Shown piece by piece: positions 3,581 through 46,284 of a DNA stretch of 49,857 nucleotides. Below the pieces are notes generated by a model that was given only the letters and a program-made list of their open reading frames with translations, made no database searches and had not been told where the DNA came from. Position numbers and translations under genes: made by a program. The stretch is from Escherichia phage PH1062: sequence record OQ680139.1. The stretch is one strand, 5' to 3'. Every line of letters starts with the position of its first letter. Positions within the stretch are counted from its first letter, which is position 1.

Positions 3581-4299
3581 TTGTCTAAGTCCTTATGTCT
3601 GCAAACCATTACTGTATGTTCCTGGAACCAGCCTGAGTAAATATCCGTCTTTGACAGCTTACCGAAGGCATGGTGAAGAAGTTGATTGTTTCCAAGGTAA
3701 ATTCCCGCATGATTCCATACTTCGGCCTGTAGTTTCATGATTACCATGTCACCAGGTTCAGGATCTTTTCCTGTTTCAACGAATCCCTCTTTGATGTAGT
3801 TATCCTGGTATAGATTCTCGCCATACTCAGGCTTCCACCATTCGTAAGGCTTTCGGAAGTCATTCAGGATCACGCCTTGCTCTTTGTGCCACGCCATAAC
3901 CAGCCCCCAACAATCGAATGAGCCAAGCGACCAGGGCCGACCAATCAGCGGCATGGCTTCTGGATGAACGATTCTCATGTCACCTTCTGGCAGACTTACA
4001 ATCACCCATGGCAATTCCATCTCATTCAATACGCATAGGTCATGTGCGCTTGGTAAAGTGGTCGCCCCGTCGCCAGTGTGACTATGGACGATGGCGATCG
4101 TGGTTAGGTCGGCGTCATCCTCAATGCAGGCGTACTGTACAGAATGAAGCTGAAAACCTTTTTCCGGCTCTGAGTGAACGTTGTCAATAGGCCAGTATTT
4201 TTGCACTCGGCCTTTCTGAGTAACCACCCCGCAACATTCATTGGGGTAAACTGATTTTGCATGTTCGAAGATTGCCATCTTAATTTTGCCGTTAATCAT
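3574..4299 (-). CDS. Tail assembly protein, lambda gpK-like (JAMM/MPN plus NlpC/P60-like)
   Basis: 241 aa; HSHTGDGATTLPSAHD fits the JAMM metal motif; gene order L-K-I-J. Confidence 0.6.
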   Translation of the reverse strand: MINGKIKMAIFEHAKSVYPNECCGVVTQKGRVQKYWPIDNVHSEPEKGFQLHSVQYACIEDDADLTTIAIVHSHTGDGATTLPSAHDLCVLNEMELPWVIVSLPEGDMRIVHPEAMPLIGRPWSLGSFDCWGLVMAWHKEQGVILNDFRKPYEWWKPEYGENLYQDNYIKEGFVETGKDPEPGDMVIMKLQAEVWNHAGIYLGNNQLLHHAFGKLSKTDIYSGWFQEHTVMVCRHKDLDKC

Positions 4300-40528: not shown

Positions 40529-41077
40529 CTATCTATCTCCGTCACACCCAAACTCACCATGATAATAATTACTGGCTTTTAAGTACGCTTCACGCGCCGA
40601 CTCCTTTGTGGTATGCCTTCCTAGCCATATTTTTTTATTATTAACCCATATCCACGCCGTGTACTTCCCTGTTTGCTTGCAGAATCCAACGCCTTTTACT
40701 CCTGATGTATTGTGAGATGGTTTTTTCATATTTCTATTGTTCTCAGATGATGACGCTTCCCTTAGGTTTTCTATCCTATTATCAGTCCTGATCCCGTTTT
40801 TATGATCTATATACTTAGAAGGCCATTCACCTTTACAAAGCGCCCATGAAACCCTATGGCATTTAACGTCGAATCCGAAAAATCTGAAAACCTTATAACC
40901 AGATTTATGGACCGTTCCGGCCTCATCTCCAGCCTTAACCCTATTAGATGTGCTTTTTACCCAAATTATAACTCCGTTGTCGTATTTAAGGTAATTCCTA
41001 AGCATATCAATACTAATCAATGACTCTTTTGCCTTCATTAAATCAAAGTCTTTGCTCATTTCATTTTCCTCATTCAT
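40529..41077 (-). CDS. HNH homing endonuclease with AP2-type domain (start may be Met at ~41059)
   Basis: YIDHKNGIRTDNRIENLREASSSEN then SGVKGVGFCKQTGKYTAWI; minus-strand gene inside a plus-strand block. Confidence 0.75.
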   Translation of the reverse strand: MNEENEMSKDFDLMKAKESLISIDMLRNYLKYDNGVIIWVKSTSNRVKAGDEAGTVHKSGYKVFRFFGFDVKCHRVSWALCKGEWPSKYIDHKNGIRTDNRIENLREASSSENNRNMKKPSHNTSGVKGVGFCKQTGKYTAWIWVNNKKIWLGRHTTKESAREAYLKASNYYHGEFGCDGDR

Positions 41078-41091
41078 GTGTTATGCTTTTA

Positions 41092-41121
41092 ATCATACCA
41101 ACCGTAACATGAGATAGTCAA
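41092..41121 (-). promoter_or_regulatory. Sigma70-like promoter TTGACT-18-TATGAT for the HNH gene
   Basis: Hexamers on the minus strand; -35 overlaps the primase start codon region. Confidence 0.45.
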
Positions 41122-42047
41122 TGATGGATATGTATCAAAAAGAGGAAGTTATACCTTACATGAAGGGTCTTTGGAGGGAAGCTCTGCAATCAATATGTGG
41201 CCTTGATAACTCATACTTCACGAAGCGACATGGGCCATGCCCGCATTGCTTTGGAAAGGACCGTTTTCGCTGGACTGACAATATTAACACCCCAGGCGAC
41301 GGCGGCGCGATCTGTAACTCATGCGGAAACGACTCAGGGATCGGTTGGTTGATGAAGTTAACTGGTATGCCATATAGCGAATGCATAAACATCCTGGGGA
41401 GATTTCTTGGAAAGGTTCCGCAGGAATACATTGTCAAGGCGAACAAGAAAGCGCGCAGGACTCCGGTAGCTGGCATCAATGTCATGATGGCAGATCATGA
41501 AGCGGTAATGAAAGTTATGGGGCGCACGGAGAAGCGTGTAAATACGCCACTAAGCATGTTTGAGTCACTGCCTACTGAATCATTCGATGTCGGCGTAAAA
41601 CTTCGTGAGGATGGCGGTGAGAGCGTATTTCACACCATACCGTGTCAACTTGTGCATGAGGATGGTCTTGATGACGAGTTTTGCAATATTTTGATTATTG
41701 ATGAAGAAGGAAGGGAGTCATTTTACGCGAAGAAATACACGAGTTGCTCAGTTGCCGTGACTGGTAAAACTGAAAAGGCGATATACTTATGCCTGAACTG
41801 GATTGATGCTCAGCATATTGCATTTCACACAAAGCAAGAAGTGTGGGCCTGTTTCACCCCTGAAAACCTCGAGATGGTTGCGTACAGATACAAAGGGGAT
41901 CGGGAGGTAATGGTGGCATGCGAACCGTCTGACAAAGAAACTTTGTATATGGCGGATGACCGACAATTAAAAATAATCATCCCGAACCCGGGAGGATACC
42001 GTTCAGGAATGCAAGCCAAGCTGTTCTCAGCAAGCGATCTGCTCTAA
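41121..42047 (+). CDS. DNA primase (zinc-ribbon plus catalytic domain)
   Basis: 308 aa; N-terminal GPCPHCFGKDRFRWTD...AICNSCG zinc-binding motif. Confidence 0.6.
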   Translation: MMDMYQKEEVIPYMKGLWREALQSICGLDNSYFTKRHGPCPHCFGKDRFRWTDNINTPGDGGAICNSCGNDSGIGWLMKLTGMPYSECINILGRFLGKVPQEYIVKANKKARRTPVAGINVMMADHEAVMKVMGRTEKRVNTPLSMFESLPTESFDVGVKLREDGGESVFHTIPCQLVHEDGLDDEFCNILIIDEEGRESFYAKKYTSCSVAVTGKTEKAIYLCLNWIDAQHIAFHTKQEVWACFTPENLEMVAYRYKGDREVMVACEPSDKETLYMADDRQLKIIIPNPGGYRSGMQAKLFSASDLL

Positions 42048-42068
42048 CCGTCTTCGGGCGGTTTTTTG
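42048..42068 (+). terminator. Intrinsic terminator after primase gene
   Basis: CCGTC-ttcg-GGCGG followed by TTTTTTGTT. Confidence 0.65.
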
Positions 42069-42076
42069 TTGCCCAG

Positions 42077-42105
42077 TTGCAAGACTCATAACACAATGAT
42101 AAAAT
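42077..42105 (+). promoter_or_regulatory. Sigma70-like promoter TTGCAA-17-TAAAAT for side tail fibre gene
   Basis: Predicted start site falls at the first nt of the inverted family element 42111-42130. Confidence 0.45.
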
Positions 42106-42110
42106 CTATG

Positions 42111-42130
42111 TTTAGCAATTCGTGCTATTT
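42111..42130 (-). promoter_or_regulatory. Family element in reverse orientation at the tail fibre promoter (operator-like position)
   Basis: TTTAGCAATTCGTGCTATTT on the plus strand between two plus-strand genes; ends 19 nt before ATG 42149. Confidence 0.45.
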
Positions 42131-42148
42131 ACTTAAGGAGTTTATATT

Positions 42149-44758
42149 ATGGCTTTATACAGACGCGGTACAGCATCAATGGATGCAGACGGAACGGTTC
42201 ACGGAACCGATACAAAATGGAACGATCAGCTTGCTCTGATTCGCGTAGGTGCAACTATCGTATTCCTGGAGCAACCAATTAAGCTGGCGGTAATCAGCGA
42301 TATTGTGAGCGACACAGAGCTAAAGGCTATCTCTACGGATGGTCAGACTGCCGCTGACGGAAAGTATGTAATCTTGCTTAACGATTCATTGACCGTTAAC
42401 GGGCTTGCGCAAAACGTTGCTGAGACGCTTCGGTACTACCAGAGCAAAGAGACCGAGATTGCTGGGGCAATGGATATCATTGCGAGTCTGGATATGGATA
42501 ACCTTAACCGTATCATTGAGGAAATTAAGGCGAACAAATCAGCCGCAGAATCTGCGCAGAATCAAGCGGAGCTTGCTCGCGACGCATCCGCTGCAAACCG
42601 TGATGCCGCAAGTCAATTTGCAACATCGGCAGAGCAAAGCAAGAATGCAGCAAAGACCAGTGAGACGAACGCCAACAACGCAAAGACCGACGCAGAGACA
42701 GCTAAATCACAGGCAGTAACTGCTAAAGACCAGGCTAAAGTATTTCGTGACGAGGCAGAGCAACTCGCAAATGGTGCCGATGCATCAAATAAGGTTGATA
42801 AAGTTGGGTCCGCTATCAACACCCCAACCAGCGTTGCTGACATGCTAAAAAGATTGCGAGACACGATAAAGGGTGGATTCTGGCGAGTTGATGATATAAG
42901 TCAGTTTCCATCCGGGCAAATGGCCCCGTTCAGATACGGTTCAGGGATTTGCGGCGGCGCTGGTGACACATTTTTTGCGTTTAACGTTGACTGGCAGTCC
43001 TCTAGCGTAAAGGTTTTCTCGGGAAACAATGACGCTATCAACGGAGAGTCTGGATATATTAGCTCTATTGAGCTGGCTAAACTTGGTACAAATGGGGACT
43101 TGGCGATCGCGGACGGCGGGACGGGAGCATCTAACGACCAGGGGGCGCGCGCCAACCTTCAGGCGATGCACGAGCGTCAAGCACCGTTGTTAAGCGAAGA
43201 CCTTAACGTATTAAAAGGGGATAAGGCTGGATTTTATTACACTAACATAAGTGCGAACGCGACCACGGATAAAAACTACCCAGTAGGCAAGGCTGGATGC
43301 CTTCTGGTCCAGAAAACTGGAGCTAACGACCCAAAAAGCTGCGTACAGACCTACACCGAATATAACAGCGGGCGAAGATTCATGCGGTGGATCTCGAATG
43401 GCGCGACAGACACCTGGTCGAACTGGTACGAACTGTATAACTCTGGGTCGTCGCCGACTTTTAATGGTAAAGTGACGGTGCCGCAGGTTGCGGTTGGCAC
43501 GGCTACTCTGCGGCCGGTAACTCCCGGAGAAGGAAGCGGAGACGGGGTTGTTTGGGAATCCAGCAACGCCACGGAGGCGAGTTTTGGCATTGCGAATGTT
43601 GGCGGCGGGTCTGCGGTGTTCCACAACTATTCAAAACCAGCAAACGGGTCTGGCGTGGCTACCGGAGTGCTTATTGGTGGGTACGGGTCGCGCCCGTGGA
43701 CTGGTACTACATATACGGACCACTCAAACGTGTCGCAGCACTTCCTCATGGACGGGACCGCTTCGGATACTAACCACGGCGGCTGGTTTAGGTTGCTAAC
43801 AACCCCATTGAATAAGACCAATGCAGATCGTAGGCAAACATTCGCGACCAGCAACAACGGCGACCTTTATATAGGTTTCGATGTACCTATGGGGCTTTAT
43901 AAGATAACGCAGGAAAGTTACAACGGATTGGAAATATTAAACGGTCGCGGTCTTAAACAAGTAAATAACACAGCTAATGAAATAGCCTTAATCACCCCAC
44001 GAAACGGGGCAACAGCTAATATAAATTTCAGAGGTGTAGCTTTTAATGGCTCAATGACCGGAGTTAAAGGTGCCACTCAGCAGGGAGACAACTTGTGGCT
44101 GTCTTTTGCAGGGCATGACGGTGTAAGATTCACGGGTGCCGCTGCCGGTATGCGGATTCAGGCGTCGACTGGATGGTCAGCCACAAACACGCAATGCGGA
44201 ATAACGTTTGCGACAACGAAAGCAGGGTCCACGCAGAGGGTGGATCGGTGGAGCATTACGAGCGACGGGTCGCTGTCCCCAGCTGCGGACAACGCATACC
44301 CGATCGGCAGTGCAGTCTCCCGTGTTAGTGCGGTCTACGCAGCAAACGGGGCCATACAGACCTCGGACGCAAGACTCAAGACCGAGGTTAGGGGTTTAAC
44401 AGAGGAGGAGATGGGCGCCGCTAAAGCAATCGCCCGCGAGTTTGGCTTTTTCCGGTGGCTTGAGAGAGTAGCCGAAGAGGGCGACGATGCGAGGCTCCAT
44501 GCAGGTATTACCGTGCAGAAAGTGATGGAAATCATGCGGTCTTACGGTCTGGACCCCTTGAAGTATGGATTCGTGTGTTACGACGAATGGGAGGAGACTT
44601 CAGAGGTTATCAGTGACCCCGATGATAATTCGAAGTCGACGATCAATATAACCCCCGCAGGCAATAGATATAGCTTGCGATATTCGGAACTAAACGTGTT
44701 TATCGCCAGAGGACTTGAGCAAAGAATCTCAGAACTGGAGGCTAAGTTAGCTGGTTGA
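42149..44758 (+). CDS. Side tail fibre with C-terminal intramolecular chaperone (peptidase S74) domain
   Basis: 869 aa; Ala-rich coiled-coil repeats; autoproteolysis-type motif SDARLK followed by HAGITVQKV...YSLRYSELNVFIARGLEQRISELEAKL. Confidence 0.75.
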   Translation: MALYRRGTASMDADGTVHGTDTKWNDQLALIRVGATIVFLEQPIKLAVISDIVSDTELKAISTDGQTAADGKYVILLNDSLTVNGLAQNVAETLRYYQSKETEIAGAMDIIASLDMDNLNRIIEEIKANKSAAESAQNQAELARDASAANRDAASQFATSAEQSKNAAKTSETNANNAKTDAETAKSQAVTAKDQAKVFRDEAEQLANGADASNKVDKVGSAINTPTSVADMLKRLRDTIKGGFWRVDDISQFPSGQMAPFRYGSGICGGAGDTFFAFNVDWQSSSVKVFSGNNDAINGESGYISSIELAKLGTNGDLAIADGGTGASNDQGARANLQAMHERQAPLLSEDLNVLKGDKAGFYYTNISANATTDKNYPVGKAGCLLVQKTGANDPKSCVQTYTEYNSGRRFMRWISNGATDTWSNWYELYNSGSSPTFNGKVTVPQVAVGTATLRPVTPGEGSGDGVVWESSNATEASFGIANVGGGSAVFHNYSKPANGSGVATGVLIGGYGSRPWTGTTYTDHSNVSQHFLMDGTASDTNHGGWFRLLTTPLNKTNADRRQTFATSNNGDLYIGFDVPMGLYKITQESYNGLEILNGRGLKQVNNTANEIALITPRNGATANINFRGVAFNGSMTGVKGATQQGDNLWLSFAGHDGVRFTGAAAGMRIQASTGWSATNTQCGITFATTKAGSTQRVDRWSITSDGSLSPAADNAYPIGSAVSRVSAVYAANGAIQTSDARLKTEVRGLTEEEMGAAKAIAREFGFFRWLERVAEEGDDARLHAGITVQKVMEIMRSYGLDPLKYGFVCYDEWEETSEVISDPDDNSKSTINITPAGNRYSLRYSELNVFIARGLEQRISELEAKLAG

Positions 44759-45084
44759 GAATGCAAGGCCTGGTCTTTCTAAGGTTGGCGGGTACACTTA
44801 CACCCTGAAAAAAGACGGAATGCCTTACGCTGGTATTATCGCTCAGGAGTTTATGGATGTAGTGCCGTGAGCTGTTAGCTCATATGAGGATTACGCTGAG
44901 CTTCAAGGTCCGACACTTGACGGGAAGGAACTTATTGGTAAGCAACGATTCTTCCAGGTTGACTACGCGGCTATCGCAGCTTACGAGGTGCAGGTGTGTA
45001 AAGAGCAGGAGGAAGAGATTGTTTCCTTAAGGAATGACGTTGATGAATTGAAATTGATTGTAAAATCGTTGCTTGATAGCAAGT
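44751..45084 (+). pseudogene. Degraded second intramolecular-chaperone module downstream of the tail fibre gene
   Basis: +1 frame after the fibre stop reads ...GGYTYTLKKDGMPYAGIIAQEFMDVVP, in-frame TGA, then ...QRFFQVDYAAIAAYEVQVCKEQEEEIVSLRNDVDELKLIVKSLLDSK; no start codon. Confidence 0.55.
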
Positions 45085-45115
45085 AAAAGAAAGCCCCGCA
45101 ATGCGGGGCTTTTTG
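45085..45115. terminator. Bidirectional intrinsic terminator between tail fibre region and ssb
   Basis: AGCCCCGCA-a-TGCGGGGCT flanked by A/T runs on both strands. Confidence 0.7.
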
Positions 45116-45589
45116 TCAGAATGGAATATCATCGTCGAACTGATTTTGCTGCTGTGGTGACTGATTTGGTTGCTGATTCTGGCGTTGTTGCTTCTGTTTC
45201 TGAGGATGCTGTTGCTGCTGTCGTTGCTGGCCTTGATTCTGCTGCTGCGCAGACTCACGCTGGCTGAATTGAAGTTGAGGCCGGATCATTTCAGCAGTAA
45301 CGTAAACAGTCCCGTCATTACCTTGGCGAGAAGATAAGTGAAGTGTATCGGCAGAAATTGAAACAACATTCCCTTCCTGGAACGCCTCATCATACCACTG
45401 CATGACATTTTCTTTTGCGAAGAATGTAGCGCGGTAGTTACTGTAAACCGTCTCATCCTCGCCCTGCTGATTGCGAATCTTCATGCGTTCTGACAGTTCA
45501 ACGGCGTACATTTTCCAACGACCGTTGTTGTTGCTGCCTTCTTTGGTGTATGGCGCTTTGCGGATCTGACCAGTGATTACGTGTGGCAT
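45116..45589 (-). CDS. ssb: Single-stranded DNA-binding protein
   Basis: 157 aa; Gln-rich linker and acidic C-terminal tip DDDIPF. Confidence 0.85.
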   Translation of the reverse strand: MPHVITGQIRKAPYTKEGSNNNGRWKMYAVELSERMKIRNQQGEDETVYSNYRATFFAKENVMQWYDEAFQEGNVVSISADTLHLSSRQGNDGTVYVTAEMIRPQLQFSQRESAQQQNQGQQRQQQQHPQKQKQQRQNQQPNQSPQQQNQFDDDIPF

Positions 45590-45627
45590 TGTATTTTCCT
45601 TTTTGGATGGGGCAGAAGCCCCGTTAA

Positions 45628-46284
45628 TTAGAATTGTTCGATGGATTCAGATTGTACAGGTTCGGGCGGTGCATTTGCAACCTTGTCTTCAACCTTTTGA
45701 GTATCGGCCTTTTTCGCTGGCTGGAAACCGCGAGCGTTACCGATACTCAGTTCAGCCTTGCGCTTCTGCAAGTGGTCTTCTGCAATCTTCCATTCCGCCG
45801 CGCCAAGTGAACCTTTCGCGCTCTTATAGATAACCTGGAGGTCTTCCAGTTTTTCACAGTTGGCGATAAGTTTTTTGTAGTCCGCTGCCGTTCGCTTCGC
45901 AATTTCTGCATCGTCATCGCTCTGAGTGATTCCAAGCGCTGCGCACAATGCGTAACGGCGACCGTATGATGTTGTTGAGCCGTAAGCCTGGGCGCTAATC
46001 TTCTCGATCGGCATGTTGTACTGGAACGCAAGCCACTCACCGGAGCTGTGAAGGATGAGTGTTTCAATATGCATTACCTTTTCTGTTGACGTGTCCAGAT
46101 TTGACTGGATAACCATAAGGTCATGCTCTTTTAGTGCTGGCTCTACGGCCTCCAGAACGTCCGTCAGGTTTGAGTAATGGTTTTTCAGGTGAGTGTTGAA
46201 GCCTGATTTTTTTGCGATTGCAAACTGCTTTTTAGCTGCAATTAGAGCGGCTGAAACATTCGAAAACTTCTCTGATGTACGCAT
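45628..46284 (-). CDS. erf: Erf-family single-strand annealing protein
   Basis: 218 aa; N-terminal pattern typical of Erf as I recall it; adjacent to ssb and exonuclease. Confidence 0.6.
   Translation of the reverse strand: MRTSEKFSNVSAALIAAKKQFAIAKKSGFNTHLKNHYSNLTDVLEAVEPALKEHDLMVIQSNLDTSTEKVMHIETLILHSSGEWLAFQYNMPIEKISAQAYGSTTSYGRRYALCAALGITQSDDDAEIAKRTAADYKKLIANCEKLEDLQVIYKSAKGSLGAAEWKIAEDHLQKRKAELSIGNARGFQPAKKADTQKVEDKVANAPPEPVQSESIEQF

Follow-up and report, generated by a model that had tools for sequence, protein, structure and literature searches.

Probable remnant of a replaced fibre chaperone behind the chimeric lateral tail fibre gene of Escherichia phage PH1062

The lateral tail fibre gene and the sequence behind it

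The window analysed here is the whole 49,857-nucleotide stretch of Escherichia phage PH1062 (OQ680139.1), and all coordinates refer to it. A chimeric lateral tail fibre gene coding for 869 aa lies on the + strand at 42149–44758, as assigned from the ORF list, its translation and matches to PHROG tail fibre families. It begins with a Tunavirus-like N-terminal anchor (42149–42648, + strand) and ends with a phiEco273-like imported distal module (43449–44758, + strand) that comprises the receptor-binding part and a chaperone of its own. The sequence-only reading of this DNA placed a complete S74-type chaperone domain at the end of the fibre ORF, and this is borne out: an S74/ICA chaperone of the T5 pb1 type occupies 44363–44755 (+ strand), Pfam Peptidase_S74 (PF13884) matches residues 739–800 over positions 1–57 of its 58-position profile (E 4.3e-8, 33.8 bits), and the T5 L-shaped tail fibre with its chaperone (PDB 4uw8) matches the last 169 aa end to end (E 6.6e-48), with a further match of the C-terminal chaperone to PDB 7y5s (E 1.6e-48). 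The Ser-x4-Lys dyad, absolutely conserved in S74/ICA domains (PMC3742443), is present as S739 DARL K744 (Ser739 at 44363–65), and the 131 aa C-terminal to the cleavage site are predicted to be released from the fibre.

Immediately behind the fibre gene there are about 330 bases that read, in the +1 frame relative to the fibre ORF, as the end of a second and different chaperone. We refer to this segment (44759–45086, + strand) as the relic; by blastn and tblastn it corresponds to codons 14–122 plus the TAA of the C-terminal S74 chaperone of a formerly resident fibre. The frame from 44751 reads LVENARPGLSKVGGYTYTLKKDGMPYAGIIAQEFMDVVP*AVSSYEDY...SLLDSK* and ends at the TAA at 45084–86. The second chaperone-like frame broken by a TGA, as originally described, is thus confirmed, with the TGA at 44868–44870 (+ strand) and with matches to both Pfam S74 and tail fibre PHROGs. 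This TGA is the single internal stop and there are no indels, which fits a recent origin and is by itself no proof of non-function. Pfam S74 matches the relic at profile positions 20–57 of 58 only (22.2 bits, the cut-off being 22; E 1.7e-4). The relic is truncated: it retains only 109 terminal codons, compared with 781 and 786 codons in the intact homologues XJA18 and ULIM2, and starts 12 residues past the serine of their catalytic SDRELK, which is missing.

The relic is not in frame at the C-terminus of any ORF, and the original observation that it lacks a start codon also holds. A TAG at 44748–44750 (+ strand; read from the sequence with a frame check) closes its frame directly upstream, the sole ATG ahead of the internal TGA would give a 16-aa peptide, and the sole start past it, a GTG at 44988 (32 aa), has no suitable spacing to Shine-Dalgarno-like bases; inspection of the sequence found no Shine-Dalgarno sequence ahead of either the ATG or the GTG. 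All elements of the sequence-only reading are found where it had placed them.

A GC-rich hairpin with flanking A and T runs follows at 45090–45112 and was identified in a terminator scan as a bidirectional intrinsic terminator. Beyond it lies a convergent SSB-like gene (45116–45589, − strand) taken from the ORF list, whose 157-aa product ends in FDDDIPF and has no Pfam match. The same hairpin is present 3' of the intact fibre genes of XJA18, ULIM2 and SA12KD, and the annotations of SA12KD and Chapo list it as a terminator. The terminator would serve both convergent transcripts, those of the fibre and the SSB gene, and was probably kept from the resident locus; the position of the relic relative to it and to the SSB gene is that of intact Tunavirus fibres. 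Homology to P817 and p111 starts at 45087/45116 and continues onward, marking where a Nouzillyvirus-like backbone resumes; the Tunavirus-like block gives way to this backbone at 45087–45139.

Homology, relatives and substitution pattern of the relic

The comparison with fibre C-termini of related phages that had been proposed gives a clear result, with 44757–45083 aligning to the final ~110 codons of the intact T1-like fibre genes of XJA18 and ULIM2 at 77% DNA identity (blastn E ~1e-84 to 1e-86). In tblastn the translated relic matches residues 13–122 of the chaperone domain in the XJA18 fibre with 81% identity (E 1.4e-58). Matches of this strength lie far beyond chance. The relic also matches tail fibre PHROGs at their extreme C-termini (phrog_6578, E 2.7e-30), the MYRF ICA structure 7dc3, and E. 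coli prophage genes named in RefSeq as S74 family peptidases. Third codon positions account for 52 of the 74 differences from the intact genes and dN/dS is 0.06–0.07, indicating a coding ancestry in exactly the frame of the relic; this same-frame homology to intact fibre C-termini establishes its descent from an S74/ICA domain.

With two Pfam S74 domains adjoining, one might suppose that the fibre's own chaperone was duplicated in tandem and the copies then diverged, but the probability of this is negligible. The two share only 25% amino acid identity over 59 residues (E 0.002) and no nucleotide homology, a direct repeat is undetectable, and the DNA of the relic resembles the fibre ends of other phages and is still followed by their terminator; duplication is refuted by these observations. 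No repeats link the relic to anything in 41000–46000, and the idea of an invertible segment was rejected.

An intact parent allele with more than 77% nucleotide identity was not found in the phage collection in either near or distant search modes, and we therefore infer the true resident allele. Scans of viral and metagenome contigs with relic-specific 23-mers and 21-mers gave no matches, and a degenerate pattern for the 3' part of the relic recovered from viral contigs only a single JGI contig. In E. coli genomes the matches to the relic, at 71–76%, are confined to the conserved S74 core of prophage fibres. A protein database search with a repaired relic gave only two hits, one in L011, a fibre gene cut off at the contig end, and the other in the metagenome contig L012. 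No relics were found by tblastn 3' of the P817, p111 and Chapo fibres.

The gut metagenome contig L012 (ERZ987937) has the identical junction, frame offset and upstream TAG, and is 96.4% identical to PH1062 over 836 aligned bases, with five differences in 455 nt of the fibre. The PH1062 sequence CCG TGA GCT is CCG GAA GCT in L012, a change of two adjacent bases, and the codon at 44868–70 is GAA (Glu) in L012 and in all intact homologues. The TGA is thus private to PH1062 and arose after the junction was made. In L012 the 3' arm is ULIM2-like and the SSB flank is of Tunavirus type, so that recombination took place in or beside the relic after it had formed. In the Tunavirus AV106 the relic, again of this allele (94–96% identity to that of PH1062), is shorter: 113 nt have been lost, and it sits behind a different Dhillonvirus-derived fibre end and ~80 nt of Dhillonvirus-specific flank; it may have originated independently, or a second replacement may have occurred on top of an arrangement like that in PH1062.

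These copies bear on the earlier concern that the offset and stops are sequencing errors, or that two phages have been misassembled. The privacy of the TGA, two adjacent substitutions from GAA, would suit such an artefact, but the concern is largely answered by an independent assembly that shares junction, offset and TAG, by a fibre end (LEAKLAG*) with the same last residues and stop in phiEco273, and by the analogous arrangement in AV106; we regard an artefact as extremely improbable.

Selection on the relic is relaxed, as judged from tests that rest on small counts of 5–9 substitutions. The PH1062 and AV106 relics differ at nine sites (2, 4 and 3 at the three codon positions) with a dN/dS of 0.69, compared with 0.066 for the functional fibre N-terminus in the same pair (Fisher p 0.004–0.03), and all five codons changed between the PH1062 and L012 relics are nonsynonymous (p 2e-4 under an omega of 0.06). 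With a dN/dS of about 0.7 among relic copies, the changes look neutral. Truncation, the absence of translation signals and, on these small counts, relaxed constraint are all features of a pseudogene.

Some role as a protein could still be envisaged, either as a fibre extension recoded by a +1 frameshift and readthrough of the TGA, or as a small chaperone acting in trans. The frame is otherwise open over 109 codons, L012 has no internal stop and was given an 88-aa protein from an internal Met by a gene caller, and a 37-aa ORF is annotated in the AV106 relic. Automated callers, however, yield small ORFs on any open stretch, and several features make expression very unlikely. The upstream TAG leaves only 5 nt, GCT GG(T), ahead of the fibre TGA with no slippery motif, and an extension would end at the internal TGA after 37 codons. 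Any product would lack the Ser–Lys dyad and the first 12 domain residues, the internal starts have no Shine-Dalgarno sequence, substitutions among the relic copies are mostly nonsynonymous, and in any case everything past Ser739 is predicted to be removed by cleavage (PMC3742443). Programmed recoding was rejected from the geometry of the TAG and TGA and from a downstream frame that is broken in PH1062, shorter in AV106 and unconstrained. The relic is better annotated as a pseudogene fragment than as a hypothetical protein, a misannotation that has already occurred for the AV106 equivalent (WPK33244.1) and for the 88-aa metagenome call.

The last ~37 chaperone codons (44975–45086, + strand) form a conserved arm, recognised by alignment and by a synonymous divergence from XJA18 and ULIM2 (pS 0.23–0.46) far below that of the preceding 35 codons (~1.0), and this low divergence holds for intact and relic copies alike. 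In addition, the PH1062 and AV106 relics differ by 4%, whereas the synonymous divergence of the fibre N-terminus in that pair is about 0.2, reflecting either a later exchange of the relic region or slower than neutral evolution. The relic could accordingly be retained for a role at the DNA or RNA level, either forming with the bidirectional terminator a right-hand homology arm for repeated exchange of fibre cassettes, or spacing or stabilising the 3' end of the fibre mRNA, and both the recombination seen in L012 and the Tunavirus-like/Nouzillyvirus boundary at 45087–45139 are in keeping with the former. We consider this unlikely. The arm was not used in the event that created the relic, whose right join coincides with the stop codon of the donor; low divergence is explained equally well if the arm belongs to the backbone and not to the cassette; the 5' two thirds show no such conservation and lost the 113 nt in AV106; and use of the relic as a recombination substrate would not mean that it is under selection. 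There is no RNA family match or unusual folding: Rfam has no match to the relic region at the gathering score, with sub-threshold matches centred on the terminator hairpin, and the folding energy of the relic is like that of shuffles (z −0.37). A related and similarly doubtful suggestion is that the last ~110 nt and the terminator are a recurrent landing pad for self-contained fibre modules in Tunavirus, Nouzillyvirus and Dhillonvirus genomes; if so, relics would persist as the right-hand arm for the next swap, and the locus would be a cassette site and not a random mosaic.

Fibre mosaicism and the origin of the relic

Comparison of the fibre gene with its two closest classes of relatives shows where the parental sequences meet. 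Identity to ULIM2 per 100 nt is 93–99% at 42149–42648 and falls to 67–69% by 43249–43448, and no similarity to ULIM2, XJA18 or AV106 is found in 43449–44758. Identity to phiEco273 is 82–97% over most of 43449–44748, with a dip to 77–79% at 44049–44248; blastn of 42680–44768 gives 83%, and megablast gives 93.4% over 44300–44768 (469 nt), ending ~10 nt past the fibre stop. The fibre's own chaperone is 92% identical in protein to that of phiEco273, and the 3' end of this Dhillonvirus fibre gene is the closest database relative of the imported module. The fibre thus switches from Tunavirus-like to phiEco273-like at ~43250–43450, in a middle part common to both parental fibre families, and remains so to the stop codon.

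The right-hand recombination junction lies at 44757–44758, where the final GA of the incoming TGA stop also occurs in the resident sequence. The donor proxy alone matches at 44752, 44754 and 44756, and the resident proxy alone at 44759, 44762 and 44764. Given this 2-nt overlap, and the low amino acid identity and lack of nucleotide homology between the two chaperones, the right join was illegitimate or microhomology-mediated and not a product of homologous recombination between them; only the left crossover falls within sequence common to both parents. The sequence-only reading regarded the relic as the footprint of a fibre replacement by recombination inside the conserved chaperone region. 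The replacement of part of the fibre is well supported by the native terminator and SSB context and by the switch to phiEco273-like sequence, but the position of the crossover needs revision: it is inside the resident chaperone, 12 codons past the catalytic Ser, and in the incoming DNA it is at the stop codon, in a non-homologous join.

The relic is very probably a real pseudogene remnant of an older fibre gene, left by a swap of the distal part in the course of ordinary mosaicism, and we propose the following order of events. The ancestor would have had a Tunavirus-type lateral tail fibre gene with an XJA18/ULIM2-type S74 C-terminus, and behind it the bidirectional terminator and then the SSB gene in convergent orientation. 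Its distal part was presumably replaced by a piece of another fibre, most similar among known sequences to that of phiEco273, which supplied its own T5 pb1-type chaperone and stop codon; a Dhillonvirus donor and this direction of transfer are suggested by a single database relative. The left crossover would have been mid-gene at ~43250–43450, where both fibre families are homologous, and the right end joined illegitimately through the 2-nt overlap, placing the incoming stop 12 codons into the resident domain and leaving the old chaperone end out of frame. The final 109 old codons would thus have remained, flanked by the new stop and the old terminator, in the +1 frame and with neither the Ser–Lys dyad nor a start. 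The relic is presumably transcribed as the fibre 3' UTR and untranslated, and would since have drifted neutrally, gaining its TGA in the PH1062 genome. The block of primase 3' part, chimeric fibre and relic would now reside in a Nouzillyvirus-like backbone, with its right boundary in the terminator and SSB tail.

Relation to known systems

The relic is a commonplace trace of mosaic evolution in phages, consistent with everything known and raising no new questions. It does document the flow of fibre modules among Dhillonvirus-like, Tunavirus-like and Nouzillyvirus-like genomes, with one junction located to 2 nt, and it shows that a T1-like fibre stem can accept a complete distal module equipped with an S74 chaperone of its own. 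For host-range design in the Drexlerviridae the corresponding rule would be to place the left junction in the common middle region, the right one needing no homology.

S74/ICA domains are auto-processing intramolecular chaperones at the ends of phage fibres and spikes, as in the K1F endosialidase, T5 pb1 and the GA-1 neck appendage, and are also present in eukaryotic MYRF. The relic shares homology with the body and the C-terminal helical part of these domains, but it is a fragment that lacks the dyad, is out of frame and bears a stop, and as judged from these features it cannot be expected to act as a chaperone or a protease.

Narrow keyword searches of open-access text found no described S74 or fibre relics. 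The relevant passages of one report relate fibre genes across Dhillonvirus, Tunavirus and Kuravirus (PMC11430396), and PH1062, with its Tunavirus-like N-terminus (93–99%) and Dhillonvirus-like distal module, resembles the lateral tail fibre exchanges between Drexlerviridae and Dhillonvirus as far as those passages describe them. The passages on fibre exchange located by keyword do not mention remnants of the replaced gene, whereas PH1062 keeps its 3' end, and it is this that allows one junction to be mapped so closely.

A different parallel is provided by the K1E/K1-5/SP6-like phages, in which truncated tail-protein ORFs lie beside the active one. In both situations a dead fragment of a former host-recognition gene adjoins the current one, but those phages belong to another group, and the PH1062 remnant is the C-terminal self-cleaving chaperone and not an N-terminal or adaptor part.

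The tail fibre gene and the frame behind it

The tail fibre gene (42149-44758, plus strand; 869 aa) terminates at a TGA at 44756-58 and ends, as the sequence-only reading had proposed, with a complete S74-type chaperone. Residues 739-800 match Pfam PF13884 over profile positions 1-57 of 58 (E 4.3e-8). The C-terminal 169 aa can be aligned, right up to its end, with the T5 L-shaped tail fibre and its chaperone (PDB 4uw8, E 6.6e-48), and they also match a second phage tail fibre of known structure (7y5s, E 1.6e-48). S74/ICA domains have been studied in detail, and their Ser-Lys dyad and cleavage mechanism are described in PMC3742443. The Ser-x4-Lys motif of the fibre's own domain is S739/K744, a position that predicts the release of 131 residues on self-cleavage.

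Immediately after the fibre stop the +1 frame translates as LVENARPGLSKVGGYTYTLKKDGMPYAGIIAQEFMDVVP, a stop (TGA, 44868-70), AVSSYEDYAELQGPTLDGKELIGKQRFFQVDYAAIAAYEVQVCKEQEEEIVSLRNDVDELKLIVKSLLDSK and a terminal stop (TAA, 45084-86). We refer to this segment (44759-45086, plus strand) as the relic. Its frame is closed just upstream by a TAG at 44748-50, and neither the window sequence nor the ORF list provides a usable start codon in it. A chaperone-like stretch with an in-frame TGA and no start had been described here (44751-45084), accurately in both content and position according to the translation and ORF list. A terminator scan places a GC-rich hairpin at 45090-45112, a bidirectional terminator that ends the fibre transcript as well as that of the convergent SSB-like gene (45116-45589, minus strand; 157 aa). 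The latter occupies the SSB position and ends in an acidic tail, FDDDIPF, but has no Pfam match at E <= 0.001; Tunavirus relatives have a different version of 137-141 aa.

Recoding into the relic is implausible, as the upstream TAG and the fibre TGA are five bases apart and there is no slippery motif; a recoded extension would end after 37 codons, and anything past Ser739 would be cleaved off anyway. In an Rfam search of the relic no family reaches its gathering score, the weak matches all lying on the terminator hairpin, and the relic RNA folds no better than shuffled sequences (z -0.37).

Origin of the relic and the fibre junctions

The relic translation matches Pfam S74 over profile positions 20-57 of 58 only (E 1.7e-4), the far C-terminal ends of eleven PHROG tail fibre families (strongest for phrog_6578, at positions 1095-1197 of 1210, E 2.7e-30) and the MYRF ICA domain (7dc3, E 3.7e-4). 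BLAST against related fibre C-termini upholds its reading as a chaperone remnant, with a 77% DNA match over 392 nt to the 3' ends of the fibre genes annotated in Escherichia phages XJA18 and ULIM2, which have intact T1-like fibres (E about 1e-84 to 1e-86); identity to the fibre 3' end of SA12KD is 74%. The relic protein corresponds to residues 13-122 of the XJA18 chaperone domain (81% identity, E 1.4e-58), and several independent sequence measures thus place the homology beyond chance. Third codon positions hold 52-54 of the 74-75 differences from XJA18 and ULIM2, and dN/dS is 0.06-0.07, pointing clearly to a coding ancestry in exactly the +1 frame.

In XJA18, ULIM2 and SA12KD the counterpart of the relic closes, in frame, a fibre of 657-786 aa, and the terminator hairpin and SSB gene found 3' of the relic come next there too. 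The relic is therefore in its native right-hand context, and would be resident sequence rather than an insertion. Intact homologues read SSDRELKDNIKPI-ENAR..., and because the relic begins at ENAR, the catalytic Ser, the Lys and 12 residues counted from the Ser are absent.

The fibre gene itself is a mosaic. Positions 42149-42648 are 93-99% identical to Tunavirus ULIM2, 92-98% to Tunavirus AV106 and about 90% to T1; 42649-43248 are 81-89% identical to ULIM2 and 55-79% to the Dhillonvirus phiEco273 fibre; and 43249-43448 are about 67% identical to ULIM2 and phiEco273 alike. From 43449 to 44748 identity to phiEco273 is 82-97% (77-79% at 44049-44248), with no detectable similarity to Tunavirus fibres. 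This pattern puts the left crossover inside sequence common to both fibre families. The conserved N-terminus is the part that attaches to the virion; according to PMC8594841, no other region is conserved in the lateral fibres of Drexlerviridae.

At the right end, 44300-44768 is 93.4% identical to phiEco273, and the fibre's final C-terminal residues and stop codon are identical to it. The window agrees with the donor proxy alone at 44752, 44754 and 44756, and with the proxy for the resident sequence alone at 44759, 44762 and 44764, so that the overlap is the GA of the incoming TGA. Amino-acid identity between the two chaperone types is only 25% over 59 aa. The mosaic fibre and the relic homology support the earlier proposal of a fibre replacement by recombination. 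The mechanism it proposed needs a single correction: the right-hand join was illegitimate or microhomology-mediated and not a homologous exchange within a conserved chaperone region. The same divergence excludes tandem duplication of the fibre's own chaperone, and no repeats link the relic to other parts of the locus. The octamer GCTGGTTG at the junction (44750-44757) agrees with the E. coli Chi octamer GCTGGTGG in 7/8 positions; it derives from the incoming fibre's last codons, and the match is probably a coincidence.

Other copies and their decay

A 1184-nt gut-metagenome contig (L012; k127_17216, ENA ERZ987937) was located through a database protein that is merely an ORF call on its relic; this public 88-aa 'protein' (P0001) is just the open part from an internal Met. 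The fibre 3' end of L012 has 5 differences from the window in 455 nt, with an identical junction, frame offset and upstream TAG, so the junction is real and older than the split of the two sequences. The junction region (L012 456-783) has no internal stop, reading CCG GAA GCT for CCG TGA GCT in the window, whose TGA is a later two-base change in its own lineage. L012 has an SSB flank of the Tunavirus type and resembles ULIM2 over roughly the final 100 nt of its relic; at the relic's right end, recombination has gone on.

The fibre N-terminus of AV106 (OR352937) is 92-98% identical to that of the window, and its distal fibre belongs to another Dhillonvirus type (GeorgBuechner/bob group, about 82%). 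Behind that lie about 80 nt of flank specific to Dhillonvirus (92%) and then a relic of this chaperone allele that is shorter than the window's (4001-4214; window 44870-45139 at 94-96% identity). This is a second replacement, joined at another point on the right, and was either independent or came on top of a window-like arrangement. The AV106 relic begins exactly at the codon that reads TGA in the window. The 37-aa hypothetical protein that GenBank places within it (WPK33244.1) is probably an artefact of annotation. The fibre of Dhillonvirus PC2 (ON184124, 2947-3312) ends in a relic-type, ULIM2-like chaperone with 87% protein identity to that of XJA18. Each chaperone type thus occurs in both genera, and transfer direction is unreadable from chaperone type alone.

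The window and AV106 relics show 9 differences (codon positions 2/4/3; dN/dS 0.69), against 5 nonsynonymous and 20 synonymous changes in the functional fibre N-terminus of this pair (dN/dS 0.066; Fisher p 0.004-0.03 depending on rounding). Between the window and L012, 5/5 changed codons in 44759-44985 are nonsynonymous (probability 2e-4 under ancestral constraint, 0.29 under neutrality), and over the middle 35 codons any two of the three relic copies are separated by 0-1 synonymous and 2-5 nonsynonymous changes. These counts, though low, all agree.

Synonymous divergence (pS) is 0.23-0.46 in the final 37 codons of the chaperone gene and about 1.0 in the 35 before them, in intact and relic copies alike. 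The relics of the window and AV106 are 4% different, below the divergence at synonymous sites of their functional N-termini (dS about 0.2). Homologues of 44975-45139 (L002, AV106, L005, L006 and L012) take in the gene's last ~110 nt, the terminator and the C-terminal tail of SSB and are near-identical in DNA; in those Tunavirus members synonymous sites of the chaperone sequence upstream are saturated, a pattern suggestive of a recombination boundary in common. In the simplest reading the 3' arm and terminator belong to the exchanging backbone and are homogenised by recombination; a 3' arm used again and again by fibre cassettes as a landing pad is the less likely reading.

Genome setting and comparison with known fibre loci

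Beyond an interval of roughly 41130/41622-45139 the window resembles Nouzillyvirus: P817 is 93.6% identical up to 40506 and 90% identical from 45116 onward, with p111 much the same (92% up to 41621). The chimeric fibre and relic have thus moved as a block into another genus-level backbone, the block's right boundary lying in the terminator/SSB tail. This Tunavirus-like block (41130-45139; primase 3' part, fibre and relic) forms a second, larger layer of mosaicism around the relic, with ULIM2 87% identical over 41130-43462 and L012 96% over 44304-45139. Between a Cro/YdaS-like ORF and the primase lies a homing-endonuclease-like gene with HNH_3 and AP2 domains (40529-41077, minus strand; 182 aa), which p111 shares. 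P817 lacks it, with a gap of just 40 nt or so between the homologous flanks, and the gene has the look of a mobile insertion.

That lateral fibre loci vary in Drexlerviridae and that fibre genes are related across genera is documented in PMC8594841 and PMC11430396. A narrow literature search found no leftover S74 fragment marking a fibre swap. Leftover gene pieces alongside exchanged receptor-binding genes are a well-known phenomenon, and the value of the relic is modest, lying mainly in the correction it brings to annotation and in its being a natural example of the grafting of a self-contained fibre module.
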